Positions 8,701 through 40,158 of a DNA stretch of 64,000 nt are shown here, in pieces. This DNA comes from a virus. Taxonomy: Duplodnaviria; Heunggongvirae; Uroviricota; Caudoviricetes. A program made the translations under genes and the position numbers. The notes under the pieces were generated by a model. That model searched no databases. It was not told the origin of the DNA and worked only from the letters and a program-made list of their open reading frames with translations. Positions within the stretch are counted from its first letter, which is position 1; each line of letters begins with the position of its first letter. The stretch lies in the IMG/VR virus record IMGVR_UViG_3300043418_000226; one strand, given 5' to 3'.

Positions 8701-9632
8701 ATCATAAAGAAATGTTAGGCCTTTATATCAATTATAGACTTGATACTTTAAACGGCGGAGGAACTTATAAAGATTTCTTTAAAAATAACGGATTTAACTA
8801 TTCGTTACCTAACAAAATGGACGGTCACGTTTTAAATGGAGATATTTTACAATTAATTTCAATTAATAATGAGGCGGGAATTGAAGAGTTCGATTTACAA
8901 AATAGGGATTATGGGGTATATAATCCACAAATTTTAGATAATGAAGAATTCCCAACGTTATTAGATGGTGGACCAATTCCAATTAATTTATTTTTAGATC
9001 CAGGTGAGGGATATAGAGTTAGGTCATGTTTAAACGAGCCAGGTAGACTTACCGAAGCGTCACAAAAAGTTCCGTTTTATTTATGGGATAAAAAAGGTAC
9101 GGGATTTGGTAGTGGATTTGACCAAGCTTGGGATTATCCGACAACAATTACTCAACCATTACAAGGAATGACATATGGATATAAATACAGTGGTGACACA
9201 ACACATCCTTATGTCCTATTTCCAATGTCAAAAGATTATTCAGGTGACGTTATCACCATTAGTAATATACAAGTGGGGGATTTCGATTTTGAAATTGTAG
9301 ATACTACAGACGTAAGATCACTTTATTCAATGCAAGAGGAAGGTTTTAGAGTTTTAGTGGTTACAAGTGGCACAATTACATCACCTATATCAGGAACGTT
9401 ATATACGAGAGTTGGAAACGCTTTACTTAATAGTACATCAAATTGGTCTTCACAACAATGGAATAATGATGTGGATTTTATTGTAAAACCAACATCAACA
9501 AATTACAATGGTAATAAACAAATTCTGTCGACACCATTTTTATTTTATTTTGGACTGAGACCCGGTAAAACTGCGGTTGATAAATTTATTGAAAGATTTG
9601 GGCCAAAAGGGGCCTTCCCATCAGCTGAATAA
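5784..9632 (+). CDS. Large baseplate-region structural protein with N-terminal prealbumin/carboxypeptidase-regulatory-like fold and an internal hydrophobic segment
   Basis: GVVCGRISVNNGFGIPNARVSIFVP...TNSAGDFMIWGVPLGQQTIHVDVD; hydrophobic stretch FLILLAIIINIFEKLIYYAFIAAVQVLIYPF; Cys-rich; baseplate operon context; TATTTAT upstream. Confidence 0.55.
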   Translation: MMQKHRISTDIGKDQRVTVELKQDYDLLEILSLKFSQKEAYTSLCADYGVVCGRISVNNGFGIPNARVSIFVPQTDKHATDPVISALYPFTSVTDKNDAGYRYNLLPARQQHGGHEPTGTFPDQTDILSREEQLEIYETYYSYTVKTNSAGDFMIWGVPLGQQTIHVDVDLSDIGCFSLRPDDFIRQGKGVDNFKSTYQYKSSTDLNTLPQIVSFDKTIEVFPFWGNVDLCEIGITRTDFDLSDRGIKIEPKAYFLGSVFSDQGKNSVNKNCTPHGTMGQKCSLISEPAIIEVLRFTSHKDDQNRPILETYEIHEDIGDDGAFVLPLPMNMEYEYTNEFGELEVTNDPNKGIPTSACYRFRISVKNQSLGRTRATASYLIPNIREYNTSDLEIEKSYAWSTNWSDYPTDALSDDMIFNNVYGSFYPQDYFYRFNYNKVYGVSSFLGSYFSSGGLNRHTYLGIKEISPKEEEDCQNSVVTPPINWAIQNFNFLILLAIIINIFEKLIYYAFIAAVQVLIYPFQWMFENFKIHIRAFGRTIFSWEPFDFLDSKVIEPLQNFGTVRLGIAIYPECETCDNLDYTNTPPDTNLDPSTTYVAVMSGTATFQPYLNSCFPNDDESTVYLKLPYPSQDNYPSTCPTVQPSVGGTFINTITDDFTGKYVIKFLRTGKFSNFNLDKKQYEDVGPDVYFLLDSQRLSYTSNGEGPRQYEDYVIYDSTQRLISGQSGGGVTNSELEGGCQQYVTVYDESAVYGTYCTSDPNTQYNTLRTTDIQGFGTQNSVSCSGGKIKVGQVIGHDNNPCGSCATKSGFSEFRYGLFTIIPAANTDNWGNNFKAITEYANRKLVAKLFCEGVSNYSFLDNWLTGSLYFFPFKQKVRWDNEAILDLNYAHTRYCHDLVYFKIGTVESPDKRFYYRSAYTNNGDTFSVERGTLGHPTTVVDLGPRDEFIKEICIDPSLDPNCSVVRNIGPTSYQNHKEMLGLYINYRLDTLNGGGTYKDFFKNNGFNYSLPNKMDGHVLNGDILQLISINNEAGIEEFDLQNRDYGVYNPQILDNEEFPTLLDGGPIPINLFLDPGEGYRVRSCLNEPGRLTEASQKVPFYLWDKKGTGFGSGFDQAWDYPTTITQPLQGMTYGYKYSGDTTHPYVLFPMSKDYSGDVITISNIQVGDFDFEIVDTTDVRSLYSMQEEGFRVLVVTSGTITSPISGTLYTRVGNALLNSTSNWSSQQWNNDVDFIVKPTSTNYNGNKQILSTPFLFYFGLRPGKTAVDKFIERFGPKGAFPSAE

Positions 9633-11413
9633 TGGAAGAAAGTAAAAAAATATTATTACCTAGTAAAAAATTTACGAAGGCACCCGAAGAAGAACTTAAT
9701 ATTAGATTAGATTTGGAAACGTCTGAATCATTAATGAGAATTGGTGATAAGGACATAATATTGGATGTTGCCGAATTGTTTAATAAAGAAAGAAACGAAA
9801 GTAAAAACTACAAAATCTACGGAAAAATGAGAATGGTTTTCCGTAATATGTATAGCGGTTCTTCTGAGTATTCATATATCGAAGAGAGACTTTATCTTAA
9901 TGGTGACGGGAGTGATAATAACTTCAACGGGTTTTTACCATATGATGAGTTCGCCTTCCTAAGAAGAGATTCGTATCGAGAGGTTAATATCCCAAACGCG
10001 GGAAGTACATTAGGTACATTTACCCAAAATCTACATTTCTCCGGTTCAACAAGTCATAGAACAATTACCCCAATAACGGCCCCATATCAAAATTGGAATC
10101 TTTATTTGAGTTATGCATACGACAGTGACGACAATTTCCCAATTGAATATACGTTGAATGATGGGACAACTGCCAAAATCAAAAAATCGTTTACATCAAA
10201 AGATGGGATACCATTTAGGGTGACGAATAACGGAAAGTGGTATACATTAACGTCACCGGTTGAACACGGAATGAGTGAAGGTGAATACATTACTATATCG
10301 GGAAATACATTACTAAACAATATTGATTTAAAAACAAAAACATTTTACATCAATAGTGTTGGAGATGAGATTTACAATTCTGAAAAATATGTAATAAACA
10401 TATTGAAAACACAATTTAAAAATGGTTACACACTATCAAGCGATGTCATTATATTAGGTAAAAGATGTTTAGATGTTAATAATATTGAAGATTCTACATC
10501 AAAATATTATGTACATAAAAATAAAACTTTGACAAATATCGATGGATACATTATGGATCAAATTGGTTTTGAAACTCCAATATTTGAAGATGAAAAAAAA
10601 ATATTATTTGAAAATAGTGCGGGTGTTAATGACATGATTGTTGAAAGAAATCGAATGGAATCTGTTCTATACGATTTTAAAGAACCTTTAATTTTAACAG
10701 GATTAACAAATAATTTAGGGTTTACACCAACTGAAGTTTTCTTAACTACAATTTTTAGAAATGGAGACGGTTATTTTAATTATCCACCAAAAGTTGGTTA
10801 TAAATTTAATTTTCATAATACTTGGATTGATGACCATTTTGATGGACAATCAGCAATTGAAACTGGATTAACCGGTACAACAACGTTTACAGGTGTAGGT
10901 GGATTTACATTTACCGGCGGAACGGACATACCTATGGGAACTATATTAATCGGAGCATTTATTGAGTATAACCCTAAAGAAATGAAGGAAAGGACAATAA
11001 GTGAACCTTTTCACAAATTAACAATTAGAAAAGATATATTAGACCATAGTCAAGATACTGATGTGATTAATTTTAGAGGTGCAACAAGCACAAATCCATT
11101 TGGAATATATTATCAGGCACATCATAAAATTAAACTAAGGGAATTATCGCCATATACTGAAACGGCAATAACAAATGACATTTATAACCTACCGGAAAAT
11201 ACAAACTACGATTCAACGGAGAAAGTTTGGAGATGGAGAGACTTATATGACCATGGTTATGTGGACGTTGATGGATTTGGTACAAATTTTCCTTTTATTA
11301 ATGGACAACATTACGTTAAAAATGATTTTAATTTCTATTTAAGAAATGAGAGGTTTTATAATAATAAACAAGATGGAATTACAAACTTCAACAATAGAAA
11401 AATAGACTGTTAA
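9632..11413 (+). CDS. Putative virion structural protein (baseplate/tail region)
   Basis: 593-aa ORF coupled by TAATG overlap within the baseplate operon; contains a TSPVEHGMSEGEYITISG beta-hairpin type motif. Confidence 0.55.
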   Translation: MEESKKILLPSKKFTKAPEEELNIRLDLETSESLMRIGDKDIILDVAELFNKERNESKNYKIYGKMRMVFRNMYSGSSEYSYIEERLYLNGDGSDNNFNGFLPYDEFAFLRRDSYREVNIPNAGSTLGTFTQNLHFSGSTSHRTITPITAPYQNWNLYLSYAYDSDDNFPIEYTLNDGTTAKIKKSFTSKDGIPFRVTNNGKWYTLTSPVEHGMSEGEYITISGNTLLNNIDLKTKTFYINSVGDEIYNSEKYVINILKTQFKNGYTLSSDVIILGKRCLDVNNIEDSTSKYYVHKNKTLTNIDGYIMDQIGFETPIFEDEKKILFENSAGVNDMIVERNRMESVLYDFKEPLILTGLTNNLGFTPTEVFLTTIFRNGDGYFNYPPKVGYKFNFHNTWIDDHFDGQSAIETGLTGTTTFTGVGGFTFTGGTDIPMGTILIGAFIEYNPKEMKERTISEPFHKLTIRKDILDHSQDTDVINFRGATSTNPFGIYYQAHHKIKLRELSPYTETAITNDIYNLPENTNYDSTEKVWRWRDLYDHGYVDVDGFGTNFPFINGQHYVKNDFNFYLRNERFYNNKQDGITNFNNRKIDC

Positions 11414-17495: not shown

Positions 17496-19775
17496 ATGAG
17501 GTATTTTAACGTAAAAATAGAGGTTGGGGTTTCAAATAGTGTTTTTAGTATATACTACAATACTATTGATTCAAGTCACTATGCGTTAATTTTTAACTTA
17601 ACGGGAAGTACATTAAATGCCACAGGTTTAACATATACACAATTAACAACTGGAAATGGGTTGATGGTTGAGGTACCTGATAGTGCTACATCACTTATTT
17701 TAGATAGTTCACCTGCCGCGTTTTGTACGAATATATTCCCATATAACGACCCAACCTATACGATTTATGTTGGTGGGCCGACACCGACACCAACACCTAC
17801 ACAAACCGTTACCCCATCAGTTACGCCGACACTTACACCAACCAACACAGTTACGCCGTCGGTTACTGCAACACAAAGCCCAACACCATCAGTAACGGCA
17901 TCCGTGACCCCAACACTTACACCATCAGTTACAGCAACACAAACACCTACTCTAACCCCAACAAGTTCTGTAACACCAACTGTTACACCATCAGTTACTG
18001 CGACACAAACGCCAACAAATACGCTTACACCATCAGTAACTGCATCGGTAACGCCAACAAATACGGTAACACCAACTGTTACACCATCAGTTACTGCGAC
18101 ACAAACGCCAACAAATACGCTTACACCATCAGTAACTGCATCGGTAACTCCAAGTGTCACACCAACACAAACACCAACACAAACCCCAACGCCGTCACCT
18201 ACTTTACCGGCACTTACAGTTATTGTAACGTCATTTAGTCAACAATCATGTTATAATATAAATGATGGTTCGTTTACGTTATCAGCATCGGGAGGTAATG
18301 GTGCACCATTTGAATATTCTAAAGATAATATTACTTGGCAATCATCCGCAACGTTCACCGGATTATCTGCAAGTTCTTATACTGGTTACGTTAGAAATAA
18401 CAACAGAATTGGAACGGTTTCAAGTGTTGCTGTTGGTAATACAACAAGAAGTGCACCTACAGGTACTGTCACGTTTGGTGCGGTTACATGTAATGGAGGT
18501 ACCGACGGTACAATTACGATATCTGGTGTTTCAGGTGGACAAGGAGCACCATTCTCCACTAAACTTACAACATCGGCGGGAGCGGTGGTCTATGGATATA
18601 CAACCTTAGTTGGATCGACGAGAACGTATTCATCATTAACCGCAGGTTCATATATTGTTTACATAAAAGATTCAACATCTGTAGAATGTAGTAGTACGTT
18701 CGCGGTAACTGTCACACAACCAAGTGTGGTTGGGGTTACATTATCGGGAGGCATTACTTATCCAACTTGTTATAATACTAACAATGGTTCACTTACCGTT
18801 GCAGGTTCAGGAGGTGTAACACCATACACATATAGTGTTGATGGAGGAACATATCAATCAAGTGCCACATTTACATCATTAAGTCCGGCATCACACACAT
18901 TCCGTGTAAAAGATGCTAATGGATGTGTTTCACCGACACCATACACAACAGATTTAACTGTTACCGCACCTAACGCAACAATTACAGTGGCATCTAATGT
19001 GAGTTGTAATGGAGGTTCTAACGGTTCAATTACCGCATCGAGCCCATTCGGAGGACAAAGTGGCGCATATACAGTTGCAATTGATAACATTGGAGGAACG
19101 TACTTCTCATTCCCTAAAACATTCTCAAGTTTAACTGCGGGTTCACATAACATTTACGTAAAAGATATTAATGGTTGTATTGCTTCGTATAGCTCAGTTG
19201 TTACTCAACCTACATTAAATGTTGCAAGTATAACGAATGTTGTTGGTTCTACATTAGGTAATAATGATGGTTCATTAACGTTAACGTCATCAGGTGGAGT
19301 GTTTAACAAAACATATCGACTATATAAAGATACGGCATCACCTTACACAACGGGTTGTGGTGATACATTAATTAATACATATACCAATATCACTTCAGGT
19401 TCACCTTCTGTAAATGTAACGGGTCTTTCATGTGGATTCTATTGTCTTGAAGTTACCGACGCAAATGGTTGTGTTGTAAATAGTGGATTAATTGAAGTTC
19501 CATGTCCGGCAACAGGTTCATATTACCCATTCACTATTATGGGTTCTAACGTTATTTCTAACGCATGTGGAGGTGGAGGAACAAGTACCACAATCTACTC
19601 AAATAATCCAAGTGTTGTGGTTTTAACTAATGGTAACACATACTATAATTCAAATGGTACTCCATTTACTGGATTGTCATTTACTTATTGGGCAGATAGT
19701 AATACGTGTTTATACGGGTCATTTAACGGAGTTGGAGTATTCAATAGTCAAGGAACATGTAGTCCATGTGCATAA
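17496..19775 (+). CDS. PT-linker protein with about 5 SprB-like repeats (adhesin-like)
   Basis: Repeats of C...NDGSxTxxxSGG..P(F/Y)xYS.D...QSSATFxxLxxxxYTxxVKDxxGC match the Bacteroidota SprB repeat pattern. Confidence 0.75.
17970..18148 (+). repeat. 83-nt perfect direct repeat (96-nt period) inside a PT tract
   Basis: 17970-18052 is identical to 18066-18148 (GTAACACCAACTGTTACACC...GCATCGGTAAC). Confidence 0.9.
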
Positions 19776-28055: not shown

Positions 28056-28128
28056 TAGGACGGGACATGTAGTAATACATGTTTAGTTGGTGTGAAAGGG
28101 GGAGTGGTGTTCCCCTTTCTTTTTTTTT
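28056..28128 (+). ncRNA. Candidate small structured RNA (GNRA hairpin plus terminator)
   Basis: TATAAT at 28045-28050; hairpin GGACATGTA-GTAA-TACATGTTT (28063-28084); strong terminator downstream; GC-rich island in an AT-rich intergenic region. Confidence 0.35.
28094..28128 (+). terminator. Intrinsic terminator
   Basis: GAAAGGGGGA-gtggtg-TTCCCCTTTC followed by T9. Confidence 0.85.
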
Positions 28129-28177
28129 ATATCCTACCACATTTTTTTTTCTCACATTTTTTTCTTATTATTATACC

Positions 28178-29119
28178 ATGGTAAATCAGAAAGTTGATTA
28201 TTCGGGTGTAGTTGATATCTTAGAAGATATCTTAGGTGAACCAAAACTTCACAATGACTACAAAGGACAAATATCCTTTGATTGTCCCGTGTGCTCGTAC
28301 GACATTAAAGAATTGGACCACGGAGACGGTAAAGGTAATTTAGAAATAAACTACCACAATAGCGTGTTTAAGTGTTGGTCATGTTCTGAAACTCACGGAA
28401 CCCATGGGTCACTTTATAAATTAATAAAGAAACACGGCAACAAGAAACAACTTAAGAAATACGAAATTTTAAGACCCGACGAGAATGAAGAAAATTCAAA
28501 ACGAACATACAAACAAGTCAAATTACCAAAAGAATTTATTGCATTTAAAGACGTTTCTGCCGGTTTAAAATTAACTCCACAATATAGACAAGCATACAAT
28601 TATATTAAAAAACGAAACATTACAGAAGAAATGTTAGTTAGATATAACATTGGATTTTGTTATACCGGTGAATATGAGAATAGAATAATCATACCATCAT
28701 ATGATGAAAACAAATACTTAAATTATTTCATTGCAAGGTCTTATTTAGTAAAGACAAAATTAAAATATAAAAATCCCGAAGCTCAAAAAGAAATCATCAT
28801 ATTCAATGAATACCTTATTAATTGGGATGAAACGGTTTATATTGTTGAAGGGGCTTTCGATAGTATATTCATACCAAATTCAATACCTATGTTGGGTAAG
28901 TTTATGAGTGAACACCTATTCAATAAATTATATGATAATGCGAAAAAAATCATAATAATATTAGACCCTGACGCTTACGGTGACCAAGAAAAATTATACC
29001 ATAAATTAAATTGTGGTAAATTAATGGGTAAAGTATGGTCACTTAAATTAGAAGGAGATAAAGACATTGCAGATATCCAAGGGGACATCAGTGGATATAA
29101 AATAAAACAAATTGATTAA
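28178..29119 (+). CDS. DNA primase (Zn-binding plus TOPRIM)
   Basis: CPVC...CWSC zinc finger; YIKKRNI, RIIIP, KYKNP; TOPRIM IVEGAFDS...LDPDA..D. Start moved to ATG 28178 because the track start at 28079 crosses the terminator. Confidence 0.88.
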   Translation: MVNQKVDYSGVVDILEDILGEPKLHNDYKGQISFDCPVCSYDIKELDHGDGKGNLEINYHNSVFKCWSCSETHGTHGSLYKLIKKHGNKKQLKKYEILRPDENEENSKRTYKQVKLPKEFIAFKDVSAGLKLTPQYRQAYNYIKKRNITEEMLVRYNIGFCYTGEYENRIIIPSYDENKYLNYFIARSYLVKTKLKYKNPEAQKEIIIFNEYLINWDETVYIVEGAFDSIFIPNSIPMLGKFMSEHLFNKLYDNAKKIIIILDPDAYGDQEKLYHKLNCGKLMGKVWSLKLEGDKDIADIQGDISGYKIKQID

Positions 29120-37988: not shown

Positions 37989-38270
37989 ATGAAAAAATTT
38001 ATTCAAACTAACTTTACTAATATTGTGTTGACAATTGCGGTACTTGGACTTTTAAAAAGTTGTGGGGATGGGAGAGAATTAACTAAAATCAGAAAAGAAA
38101 TTACTGAATTGAAGGATTCAACCTACAGTAAAAAACAACTTGACATTAGATTACAAGTAGAGGGTTTAAAATCTGAAAAAAGAATGATACAATCTTCAGA
38201 TAGAAAAATTCTTGACGTTAATAGACAAACTCAGATTGACGAAGAAATTAAAAGATTAGAATCAAAATAA
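37989..38270 (+). CDS. Small lipoprotein-like coiled-coil protein (o-spanin-like)
   Basis: Hydrophobic N-terminus ending LLKSC|G, then coiled coil. Confidence 0.5.
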   Translation: MKKFIQTNFTNIVLTIAVLGLLKSCGDGRELTKIRKEITELKDSTYSKKQLDIRLQVEGLKSEKRMIQSSDRKILDVNRQTQIDEEIKRLESK

Positions 38271-38277
38271 AATATAG

Positions 38278-39288
38278 ATGAAACATTGGATTAATAAAAA
38301 TTACAAAACACTAATTGTGGCTGCGTTCTTGATTCCTATCATGACCGTTGCTGTAGTGTCGATTTCTCACGTTACTAAATGGTATGGTATATCGAATCCC
38401 ATGTCATGGTCGATTTATTTATCGGTAGGTATTGAAATTGCCGCATTGTCGGCATTAGCGGCAATATCTGCAAACATGGGTAAGAAAGTTTATTTTCCAT
38501 TTGCGGTTGTAACTATAGTACAATTTATTGGTAATATTTTCTTTGCCTATTCATATATTGACATTAACGCAAAATCATTTAAAGATTGGGTTGAATTAGT
38601 TTCTCCGATATTGGAAATTTTTGGAGTTGACCCTACCGACCCTATCGGACATAAAAGATTCTTAGCGTTTTTTGCTGGAGGTATGTTACCAATCATTTCA
38701 TTATCTTTCTTACATATGTTAGTAAAATTTACTGAAGAAGATAGAAAAAGTGAAATCATACATGACATCGATGACAAACTAAACAATAAAGTAGAAGCTT
38801 CTGAAATCATTAGTGAAGTTTCTCGTTTAAGATTATCCGATGAGGATTTAGAAATACTGTCCAAACATTTGGAAAACCCATTACCACCTAATGAGCATTT
38901 AAAAACTGCAGCTAAAAAGTATCAAGAAAAAAATAAATCAGAAGAAATAATCACACCAACACCACAAGTAATCGAGGATACTGTAAGTGAAGAAATCTAT
39001 CCAAGTTTATCTGATGAGGAGATTATGGAAATGAATCAACAGGAATATGAAAGAACTCTTGAAGTACCTGAAGATGAATTTGATGGATTTTTACCTGAAC
39101 CATTTGCAACACCCGAAGAGGTGGAAAAATACAACATTGATGAAATTGCAAAAGTTGAATCAACTGAAAACGATGAACCTATTTATCAATCTGAAACAAA
39201 AGAAATTGATGAAATTATCAATGTTGTTGACACAGCAATAGATGAGAACGAACCAACTAAAGAAGAGGAGGAAGAAAAAAAAAAGTAG
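38278..39288 (+). CDS. Four-TM membrane protein with long acidic cytoplasmic tail
   Basis: Four hydrophobic helices in aa 12-150 (S..H and IEIAAL motifs), then an E/D-rich tail ending GAA AAA AAA AAG TAG. Confidence 0.75.
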   Translation: MKHWINKNYKTLIVAAFLIPIMTVAVVSISHVTKWYGISNPMSWSIYLSVGIEIAALSALAAISANMGKKVYFPFAVVTIVQFIGNIFFAYSYIDINAKSFKDWVELVSPILEIFGVDPTDPIGHKRFLAFFAGGMLPIISLSFLHMLVKFTEEDRKSEIIHDIDDKLNNKVEASEIISEVSRLRLSDEDLEILSKHLENPLPPNEHLKTAAKKYQEKNKSEEIITPTPQVIEDTVSEEIYPSLSDEEIMEMNQQEYERTLEVPEDEFDGFLPEPFATPEEVEKYNIDEIAKVESTENDEPIYQSETKEIDEIINVVDTAIDENEPTKEEEEEKKK

Positions 39289-39575
39289 AAGACGAATATA
39301 ATTTTTCTAATGTAGGTACACATGTTCCGGTTTTTTATAAATTTGGTCCTGGTGTACCTACAGTCATGCCTGACCCCACCCCATCTCCCGAAGTTGACGA
39401 TTTATATTGGGAAAAAGATGATGTTAACCCAAATCATTTAATTTATGATTTAGAAAACGACAAAACAATTATCCCACAGTCAGAAGACGAAATGACCATA
39501 ACACCGACAAATAATTTCGGTCCACAAATTAAAGTGAGAAATGTTAGCGATACACAATATAGAAACAATCGATAG
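39279..39575 (+). other. Putative -1 frameshift site and frameshift extension of the 38278 protein
   Basis: A10G run (39275-39285) contains A_AAA_AAG; the -1 frame is open from there through the 39366-39575 ORF; GAGGAG lies upstream and hairpins downstream. Confidence 0.6.
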
Positions 39576-40158
39576 TCAGAAGTTAAACGTTAGTAAGAGA
39601 AAAACTAAAAAAACTCAAATATTACTTTTTGATACTCAAAGAAGGGTAGATGATTATGTGAACAAAATAAAACACCGTAGAAACGGTAATTATGATGATG
39701 TTCCCCATTTCATAGTTAGTAAATTAGGTATGGTTTATCAATTGTTCGATACAAACCACAACTCAAATACGTTTAATGACCCCAAAATTGACAATAGAAT
39801 GATTAAAATTGCAATTGAGAACTTAGGGTGGTTAAATAAGAATACTATCACTGGTGTCCTTAATAATTGGATTGGTGACCCATATAGGTCTGAACCACAC
39901 ATAAAAAATTGGAGAGGTTATTATTTTTGGGACAAATACAATGAAGATCAACTAAATGTATTGTCTAAATTATGTGATAAACTCTGTACGGACCATAATA
40001 TATTCAAACAAACGGTCCCATCTCAAGGATATATTGAAAAGATATCAAATTTCAAGGGGATTGTATGTAAATCCAACTTTTCAAGTATTTATACAGATAT
40101 AAACCCTTCATTCAATTTTAGGGTATTCTTTAATAATCAAAATGAAAGCGAAAACTGA
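39541..40158 (+). CDS. Amidase_2 (N-acetylmuramoyl-L-alanine amidase) fold protein, probably non-catalytic
   Basis: QILL.DT, PHFIV...G.VYQLFD, IKIAIEN.G, Y.E.Q...L..L, GIV....D.NP; the expected Zn-binding His positions read F/D and K. Confidence 0.7.
   Translation: MLAIHNIETIDSQKLNVSKRKTKKTQILLFDTQRRVDDYVNKIKHRRNGNYDDVPHFIVSKLGMVYQLFDTNHNSNTFNDPKIDNRMIKIAIENLGWLNKNTITGVLNNWIGDPYRSEPHIKNWRGYYFWDKYNEDQLNVLSKLCDKLCTDHNIFKQTVPSQGYIEKISNFKGIVCKSNFSSIYTDINPSFNFRVFFNNQNESEN

Follow-up and report, generated by a model that had tools for sequence, protein, structure and literature searches.

The locus and conservation of its A run

A stretch of 64,000 nucleotides (nt) from the Caudoviricetes record IMGVR_UViG_3300043418_000226, referred to here in its full length as the window, carries a putative recoding site at the 3' end of a gene for a membrane protein. 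The open reading frame (ORF) of this gene (38278..39288, + strand) specifies 336 amino acids (aa), which begin with membrane helices and end in an acidic tail that closes with EEEEEKKK. Its final codons are GAA AAA AAA AAG TAG and contain a run of ten A residues (A10; 39275..39284, + strand), the only A or T run of ten or more in the window and the proposed slippage site. An in-phase A_AAA_AAG heptamer is found at 39279-39285, and the zero-frame stop TAG (39286..39288, + strand) lies 1 nt past the run. A GAGGAG (39265..39270, + strand), which represents two Glu codons with the look of a Shine-Dalgarno (SD) sequence, is located 8 nt 5' of the heptamer and was judged not to be a conserved stimulator. 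A gap of 77 nt separates the TAG from an ATG at 39366.

Read from 39279, the -1 frame begins KKVEDEYNFSNVGTHVPVFYKFGPGVPTVMPD and stays open up to 39575. The -1-frame extension (39285..39575, + strand) comprises 96 codons and a stop and would form the C-terminal part of a long isoform. Standard reading of the gene gives 336 aa, and the addition of one A to the run in silico gives a product of 432 aa. The original prediction had described a dnaX-style -1 frameshift, or alternatively slippage on A10, at this position. The end of the ORF, the heptamer at the A10 site, the GAGGAG and the 77-nt gap were all verified on the sequence where it had placed them, and the -1 frame does run into the ORF at 39366-39575 without meeting a stop.

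The A10 run is not significant by itself because the window holds fewer such runs than its composition predicts; one was found compared to 6.1 expected, and at least one was present in 99 of 100 dinucleotide shuffles. It is the conservation of the run, and not its presence, that exceeds chance.

Relatives were collected by two scans of viral contigs, which yielded 45 first-round loci, and by a wider scan with a membrane-domain profile, which added 80 loci and left 55 distinct genes after the removal of duplicates. A10 or A11 was present at the homologous spot in 45/45 first-round loci. Apart from a second, in-frame A10 in the L026 lineage, no further A or T run of at least ten is contained in 299 kb of the first-round loci. 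In each of the 27 loci where tblastn detected both halves of the gene, the C-terminal part is in the -1 frame relative to the N-terminal part, a relation that persists despite differences of hundreds of bases in the tail upstream of the run. A -1 shift is needed in 40 of the first-round loci, and five are in frame (L018 and L027; L026, L028 and L032). Homologues are therefore neither always continuous nor always devoid of the -1 extension.

Among the 55 distinct genes, 34 are frame-shifted with A10, eight with A11 and one with A9. Six have one or more A9 or A10 runs in frame, five are compact (235-266 aa) and have no run, and one is cut by the end of its contig. The 43 frame-shifted genes, together with five that have a different N-terminal domain, make up 48 distinct frame-shifted relatives (A10 in 39, A11 in eight and A9 in one), and in all of them the zero-frame stop is located 0-12 nt past the run. 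A midpoint-rooted tree was built from the sigma factor, membrane domain and amidase of 53 of the 55 genes. The outgroup on this tree is the no-run type, together with the single in-frame A9 gene, L113. Genes with in-frame runs appear at no fewer than four places inside the frame-shifted clade, and A11 arises at no fewer than five. As the A11 genes depend on an identical -1 shift, they look like cases of substitution beside the run and not of a change in its length. Where the run is in frame, slipping by one base at the main run would truncate the protein within 0-3 codons, so the in-frame and the shifted arrangement could each yield both forms. In the compact relative L113, 26 nt separate the in-frame A9 (L113:3677-3685) from the stop; if one A were lost, the membrane protein would be fused to the downstream amidase, because the +1 frame stays open for 208 codons and across the amidase.

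A protein search gave 4493 hits among the 8000 candidates that were scored, and the best 120 cluster representatives were listed. By reading of this listing, 115 of the best 120 end at the Lys run. One of the others, P0088, corresponds exactly to the L009 lineage read through with +1A and has the junction EDEKKKLETP, and P0066 is a -1A form. The rest comprise one that lost its stop and two of other types.

The C-terminal extension

The extension carries the motif LYWE..DD.NPN..IYDLEN..IIP followed by a basic end, RNV....R..R. The LYWE..DD.NPNQIIYDLENNKTIIP motif is present in the extension of most lineages, and the basic end is present in all of them. Comparison of the window with its closest relative, L001, gives 7/5/32 differences at positions 1/2/3 of the -1-frame codons. 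The same pattern (3/1/9) is seen in the 27 codons that precede the window's ATG at 39366, and no ATG follows the run in the -1 frame in 24 of 28 frame-shifted first-round loci. On account of the missing ATG codons and of the codon-position pattern, the extension would depend on the shift. Natural continuous genes (L018, L026, L053, L057 and P0088) align across the junction, where their KKK residues coincide, and along the C-terminal motifs. These continuous homologues indicate that the long form is a real protein, and the alignments point to translation of the extension as part of the upstream protein. The two isoforms first proposed, 336 and about 430 aa of a membrane protein outside the tail-chaperone context, thus have strong comparative support.

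Disorder is predicted for the extension, whose counterpart in L018 has low predicted local distance difference test (pLDDT) values in an AlphaFold2 (AF2) model. No match to the extension was found among annotated phages. In one lineage (L102, L104, L105 and L106) the -1 extension after an A11 run is just 33-34 aa long and ends after an IYWE.DD motif, before the amidase start.

Two explanations would remove the need for recoding. If the ORF at 39366-39575 were an independent gene read from its own ATG, or an untranslated piece of a decaying gene, the run would be incidental. An ATG is indeed present at 39366 of the window, and the amidase start overlaps the end of this ORF, so that some of the conservation could be borrowed from the amidase frame. 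However, most frame-shifted loci have no ATG in that frame, and in the window the codon-position pattern extends upstream of the ATG. The natural continuous versions and the constant -1 relation behind a tail of variable length also argue against separate or decaying genes, which are extremely improbable. The other explanation places the cause in the DNA, either as a phase-variable tract that expands and contracts in replication or as an A10 miscalled from a continuous A11 gene. Homopolymers are mutable, and two run-length variants, P0088 and P0066, occur among the best 120 protein relatives, both from short contigs. In contrast, identical genes from up to 12 independent assemblies all have A10. 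A metagenome scan was made with a pattern that accepted A8 to A13 ahead of a flank specific to one lineage. Of the 15 stretches that it returned, four are unrelated A8 matches; the remaining 11 are family members, and 11/11 have A10. An assembly error in the homopolymer had been considered from the start, and the agreement of 11/11 metagenome contigs of one lineage favours a real site. Moreover, the 48 distinct frame-shifted sequences come from many assemblies and all need the same +1 base, including the eight with A11; the called proteins end at the Lys run with few exceptions; and, among run-bearing assemblies, in-frame and out-of-frame states never occur together in a single lineage. A cause at the DNA level is very unlikely. 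The comparative evidence makes the A10 run, with high confidence, a genuine programmed recoding site.

Polymerase or ribosome as the source of the proposed shift

A heptamer suffices for tRNA slippage. The run, on the other hand, is 9-11 nt long in 48/48 frame-shifted relatives and never 7 or 8. This length matches the RNA:DNA hybrid of 9-10 bp and the threshold for efficient in vivo slippage, nine A or T, that are given in PMC5009743.

A second feature is a hairpin directly 5' of the run. With a free energy (dG) of -4.5 kcal/mol or lower and a 3' arm ending within 1 nt of the run as the threshold, such a hairpin was found in 26 of 42 distinct frame-shifted contexts as compared to 123 of 3612 control windows (3.4%) from the same genes, in counts that are uncorrected for shared ancestry. 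The stems differ between lineages and include CATCATC/GATGATG, CATCTTC/GAAGATG, CATCATT/AATGATG, CTTCC/GGAAG, CTTCGTCA/TGACGAAG and CTTTATCTG/CAGATGAAG. In an alignment of eight hand-picked sequences of one register, a biased selection, 56/56 cells pair and 2/7 pairs change on both sides. In the case of the window, the best fold of the 32 nt upstream reaches -1.3 kcal/mol (z -0.16) and no 5' hairpin is present.

Elsewhere in the window, 10/10 Lys tracts of at least three residues contain AAG, though AAA accounts for 83.6% of Lys codons; the rough chance of this outcome is about 0.416^10 = 1.5e-4. The A10 runs number one to six in each of four related phage records of 287-336 kb (CheckV completeness 86-100%). 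The six non-homologous runs listed in these four records were rejected as recoding sites, none having a long ORF on both sides. These counts indicate that long A runs are avoided, and thus selected against, elsewhere in these genomes. The longest other intragenic A run of the window is an in-frame A9 (GAA AAA AAA ATA) at 10593-10601, inside a 593-aa ORF (9632-11410). Two T9 runs, 13 nt apart (28120-28128 and 28142-28150), are located just inside the 5' end of the ORF at 28079-29116.

The signals expected of a ribosomal site of the dnaX type were assessed at the same junctions. An in-phase A_AAA_AAN heptamer is present in 48/48 frame-shifted relatives, and the last in-phase heptamer is AAAAAAT in 22, AAAAAAA in 16, AAAAAAG in five and AAAAAAC in five. 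With respect to the slippery site and stop that were expected to be conserved, the run and a nearby stop are kept, whereas the identity A_AAA_AAG is found in only 5/48. Of 30 distinct junctions, 18 have no SD-like 4-mer in the 20 nt upstream. In the dnaX/IS3 type, the classic 3' stimulator is a stable stem-loop or pseudoknot that follows the heptamer at 5-9 nt. Folds of the 60 nt downstream of the 30 junctions have z scores from -2.4 to +1.3, centred on about 0 with three below -1.5, relative to shuffles that preserve mononucleotide content only, as do those of the 5' hairpin test.

The window does contain a clade-specific 3' hairpin with a perfect 11-bp stem (39311..39362, + strand; arms 39311-39321 and 39352-39362), which starts 26 nt 3' of the run. 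The inverted repeat had been noticed in the original prediction, and it folds as a hairpin; a 111-nt fold has an energy of -28.1 kcal/mol (z -2.52). The hairpin is kept in L001 by a double change, ACA>ACT with GGT>GGA, and no equivalent was seen in L004 and L035. As a candidate frameshift stimulator it was rejected, since 26 nt is too far and it is not conserved beyond L001. The 'weak hairpin' placed at 39286-39309 is not a distinct element; the minimum free energy fold only pairs 39270-39276 with 39302-39308. The dnaX-style architecture itself found no support, as neither the SD motif nor the 3' stem nor A_AAA_AAG is conserved. The alternative that had been offered beside it, slippage on A10, fits best.

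The mechanism proposed for the site is as follows. The phage DNA would stably hold the gene in two frames. Standard reading would give the 336-aa membrane protein that stops at TAG 39286-39288, and one extra A in the message (A10 to A11), or an equivalent -1 shift, would carry reading on into 39285-39575 and give a 432-aa protein with an extra, disordered tail of 96 residues. Both isoforms would be produced and used, at some ratio. The extra A would most likely come from stuttering of RNA polymerase on the run, since a stretch of ten A:U pairs occupies the whole RNA:DNA hybrid of 9-10 bp. Most relatives seem to have help from a small hairpin in the nascent RNA, immediately 5' of the run; the window has none.

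A translational shift would account for the same products. Ribosomes on an A10 mRNA could slip back one base, by tandem re-pairing of tRNA-Lys on A_AAA_AAG or A_AAA_AAA, or could slide on poly(A), with the adjacent stop pausing them. The window has A_AAA_AAG directly before the TAG, and the junction peptide, ...EEEKKKVEDEY..., would be identical to that produced by RNA polymerase slippage. However, many junctions have no SD-like motif in a genome that is poor in SD sequences, and the ribosomes of Bacteroidia are described as blind to the SD (PMC7797042). In addition, the downstream folds centre on a z of about 0, the efficient A_AAA_AAG is rare and AAAAAAT is the most frequent last heptamer, and the run never falls below nine though seven would suffice. 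A hairpin directly 5' of the run would be unfolded within the ribosome or in its wake, and a hairpin so placed is not known to stimulate -1 shifts. A translational origin is the less likely one, though far from negligible.

Several observations weigh against the polymerase as the main source. The hairpin and fold statistics have the limits given above with respect to ancestry and shuffling. The window, L001 and L052 are among the 16 of 42 contexts without a 5' hairpin, and because the window and its closest relative have none, the strongest pointer to RNA polymerase at the level of the family does not apply to the window. E. coli RNA polymerase is reported to slip more on poly(T) than on poly(A) and to need more than seven A (PMC6260861). 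Ribosomes are reported to slide on iterated AAA codons in E. coli (PMC4363877), and the zero-frame stop is located 0-4 nt past the run in 44/48 relatives, a placement that is also seen at some ribosomal sites. A ribosomal shift may contribute, because every run contains an in-phase A_AAA_AAN heptamer. On the whole, the comparisons lean toward slippage that is mainly transcriptional, by RNA polymerase.

The closest parallels are two cases of transcriptional frameshifting at a poly-A tract (PMC4256274), tssM1 in Citrobacter rodentium, where an A11 run gives the long form by slippage at about 20-25%, and tssM3 in Y. pseudotuberculosis, where the run is in frame and slippage gives the short form. 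As in tssM1 and tssM3, a membrane protein gene is broken just after an A11 or A10 run, and an extra A in the mRNA would restore a C-terminal domain, so that one gene would yield two length variants. Likewise, shifted and in-frame arrangements both exist, represented here by the frame-shifted lineages and by L018, L026, L053 and L057. In contrast to tssM, which belongs to a secretion system, the site described here is in a phage gene family, and dozens of divergent lineages conserve it, whereas tssM genes are said to carry sites of this kind only uncommonly. Most relatives here add a 5' hairpin, unlike tssM1, and the stop follows the run by 0-12 nt compared to 28 nt in tssM1. The present site is a putative one, proposed from sequence comparison.

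Three further systems are described in PMC5009743. In Thermus thermophilus dnaX (tau/gamma), a 9-residue run likewise provides a homopolymer of hybrid length, with nearby stops in the other frames and a shared N-terminus. The long form of Thermus dnaX is the unslipped product, unlike in the window, and this matches the minority of in-frame lineages here. The Roseiflexus IS630 transposase, where a nascent-RNA stem-loop stimulates slippage, also has its stem-loop directly 5' of the slippery motif, as do the 26/42 relatives with a 5' hairpin. Its motif, however, is T5C5 with loss of a base, whereas A10 would gain one, and the window has no such hairpin. In Shigella spa13/spa32, slippage adds a C-terminal extension that overlaps the start of the next gene, a position held here by the amidase ATG. 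The Shigella overlap affects expression of the next gene; here there is no evidence of coupling, the amidase start having a z of +0.36. By analogy, slippage at the site would probably follow the poly-A examples of tssM1, Thermus dnaX and Shigella spa13.

The resemblance to E. coli dnaX and IS3 consists of the A_AAA_AAG, the GAGGAG 8 nt upstream and the short and long products of the window. Unlike in those systems, the SD, the 3' stem-loop at 5-9 nt and the identity of the heptamer are not conserved and the run length is, in a phage whose host seems to be SD-blind. As judged from these alignments, the site lacks two defining features of the dnaX/IS3 ribosomal class. No description of this phage site was found in the searches, which covered open-access literature.

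Neighbouring genes, protein architecture and significance

The gene is followed by a gene for an Amidase_2 protein (39541..40158, + strand), an N-acetylmuramoyl-L-alanine amidase of the PGRP type. An amidase fold had been suggested for this neighbour, and Pfam Amidase_2 matches it at 28.3 bits, above the cut-off of 26. The end of the extension overlaps the conserved amidase start by 35 nt (39541-39575), and the R-N-V codons AGA AAT GTT hold the amidase ATG. The overlap is also present in relatives, and the compact, no-run type keeps it at the amidase start. Because the basic end overlaps this conserved start, it may owe some of its conservation to the amidase frame. The surroundings of the amidase start (111 nt) are unstructured (z +0.36), and translational coupling of the extension to the amidase, considered as a candidate, has no support from structure there.

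Upstream lies a small ORF of 93 aa (37989..38270, + strand) with a hydrophobic N-terminus and a Cys, a candidate lipoprotein, which has a tblastn match in 19 of 45 related loci. The local order in all related loci examined is g211, g147, sigma factor, small ORF, membrane protein, Amidase_2, g172 and g79. The window is part of a large myovirus-like phage and has genes for ribonucleotide reductase, baseplate proteins of the gp25 and J types, ClpP, a sigma-70 factor, Dam methylase and thioredoxin. The + strand holds all but one of its 55 ORFs of at least 90 aa. Among annotated phages no DNA match was found, and the sole protein match was to LR756500.1, an uncultured phage of 462 kb that has no annotation.

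A 759-aa protein with SprB repeats, a repeat of Bacteroidota gliding adhesins, is encoded at 17496-19772 among structural genes and may be a host-recognition protein. An SD core precedes 3 of 49 ORFs in the window, and such SD-poor starts fit an SD-blind host of the Bacteroidia type. A scan of genome contigs gave one match, to a 2.2-kb contig binned to an Emticicia metagenome-assembled genome, which is weak evidence. The SprB repeats, the SD-poor starts and the weak Emticicia match suggest a host among the Bacteroidota.

The membrane protein consists of a membrane domain, a TacA-like segment, a variable acidic linker and the run. The membrane domain (residues 1-160; 38278..38757, + strand) is highly conserved, with a mean column identity of 89% over 10 lineages (alignment A1). 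Four to five helices are predicted for it; an AF2 model of the continuous homologue L018 (mean pLDDT 58.5) has helices at H2-35, H41-64, H69-93, H99-113 and H122-162. No fold match to the membrane domain was found in Pfam, PHROG or the PDB, and Foldseek of the L018 model against the PDB returned nothing at E <= 0.001. With regard to function, PHROGs, Pfam and the ESM Atlas gave only 'hypothetical' and TacA1. In comparison with holins, the gene adjoins an Amidase_2 gene and the long form has a basic C-terminal end; there is no holin match in PHROG or Pfam, the size is 336-432 aa and the membrane domain is unusually conserved.

The TacA/DUF1778-like segment (residues 173-217; 38794..38928, + strand) matches Pfam TacA1 at 27.2 bits (cut-off 21) over profile positions 36-80 of 80, and L018 scores 27.0 bits. 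There are weak PDB matches to 1y9b, AtaR and KacA, and Foldseek aligned the segment to 7ak9_C with 59% identity over 27 columns (E 7.1). The DUF1778/TacA match is confined to the second, C-terminal half of the profile, which in that antitoxin family binds the toxin, and the N-terminal ribbon-helix-helix part of TacA is not matched. No acetyltransferase family (GNAT toxin) was found among the 52 ORFs of the window that were scanned. The protein may act as a membrane-tethered antitoxin mimic against TacT-like toxins of the host.

Nine loci representing five distinct genes (L035, L036, L038, L042 and L045) have an unrelated membrane domain, which starts MNNNWLKYLVA... and has several transmembrane helices and a coiled coil. 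These five genes retain the TacA-like segment, the acidic linker, the A10 run and the -1 extension, and their ORFs end at A10 near 2895-2999. Because these genes carry the same tail behind a membrane domain of unrelated sequence at the N-terminus, the conserved unit appears to be the tail together with its slip site, and these alignments indicate that the tail module is portable between membrane anchors. A broader scenario is speculative and unlikely, namely that a portable cytoplasmic module (TacA-like toxin-binding helix, acidic linker, hairpin-tuned A10 stutter site and short-motif tail) has been grafted on two unrelated anchors, and that RNA polymerase stuttering sets a fixed ratio of tail-less to tailed forms of a membrane-tethered antitoxin mimic and also, as the tailed frame closes over the start codon of the amidase, meters translation of the amidase. 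If true, this would be a rheostat based on an error rate that links anti-defence and lysis in SD-blind hosts.

In phages, nearly all known examples of programmed frame changes come from tail-chaperone genes and a small number of capsid genes, where the ribosome is held responsible. The site described here is built differently, from an A run of hybrid length and usually a 5' hairpin, and belongs to a very abundant protein family from large freshwater phages of 287-336 kb. The site is located in a membrane protein gene beside a cell-wall amidase, in phages of a host group whose ribosomes would ignore the SD. One consequence is that gene callers shorten the protein, as in the 115 of the best 120 entries that stop at the Lys run. 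The family also offers a natural series, with A9, A10 and A11, with and without a hairpin, in and out of frame, for how run length and an adjacent hairpin would tune slippage. The purging of long A runs elsewhere in these genomes is indirect evidence that slippage would be a real cost to this system.

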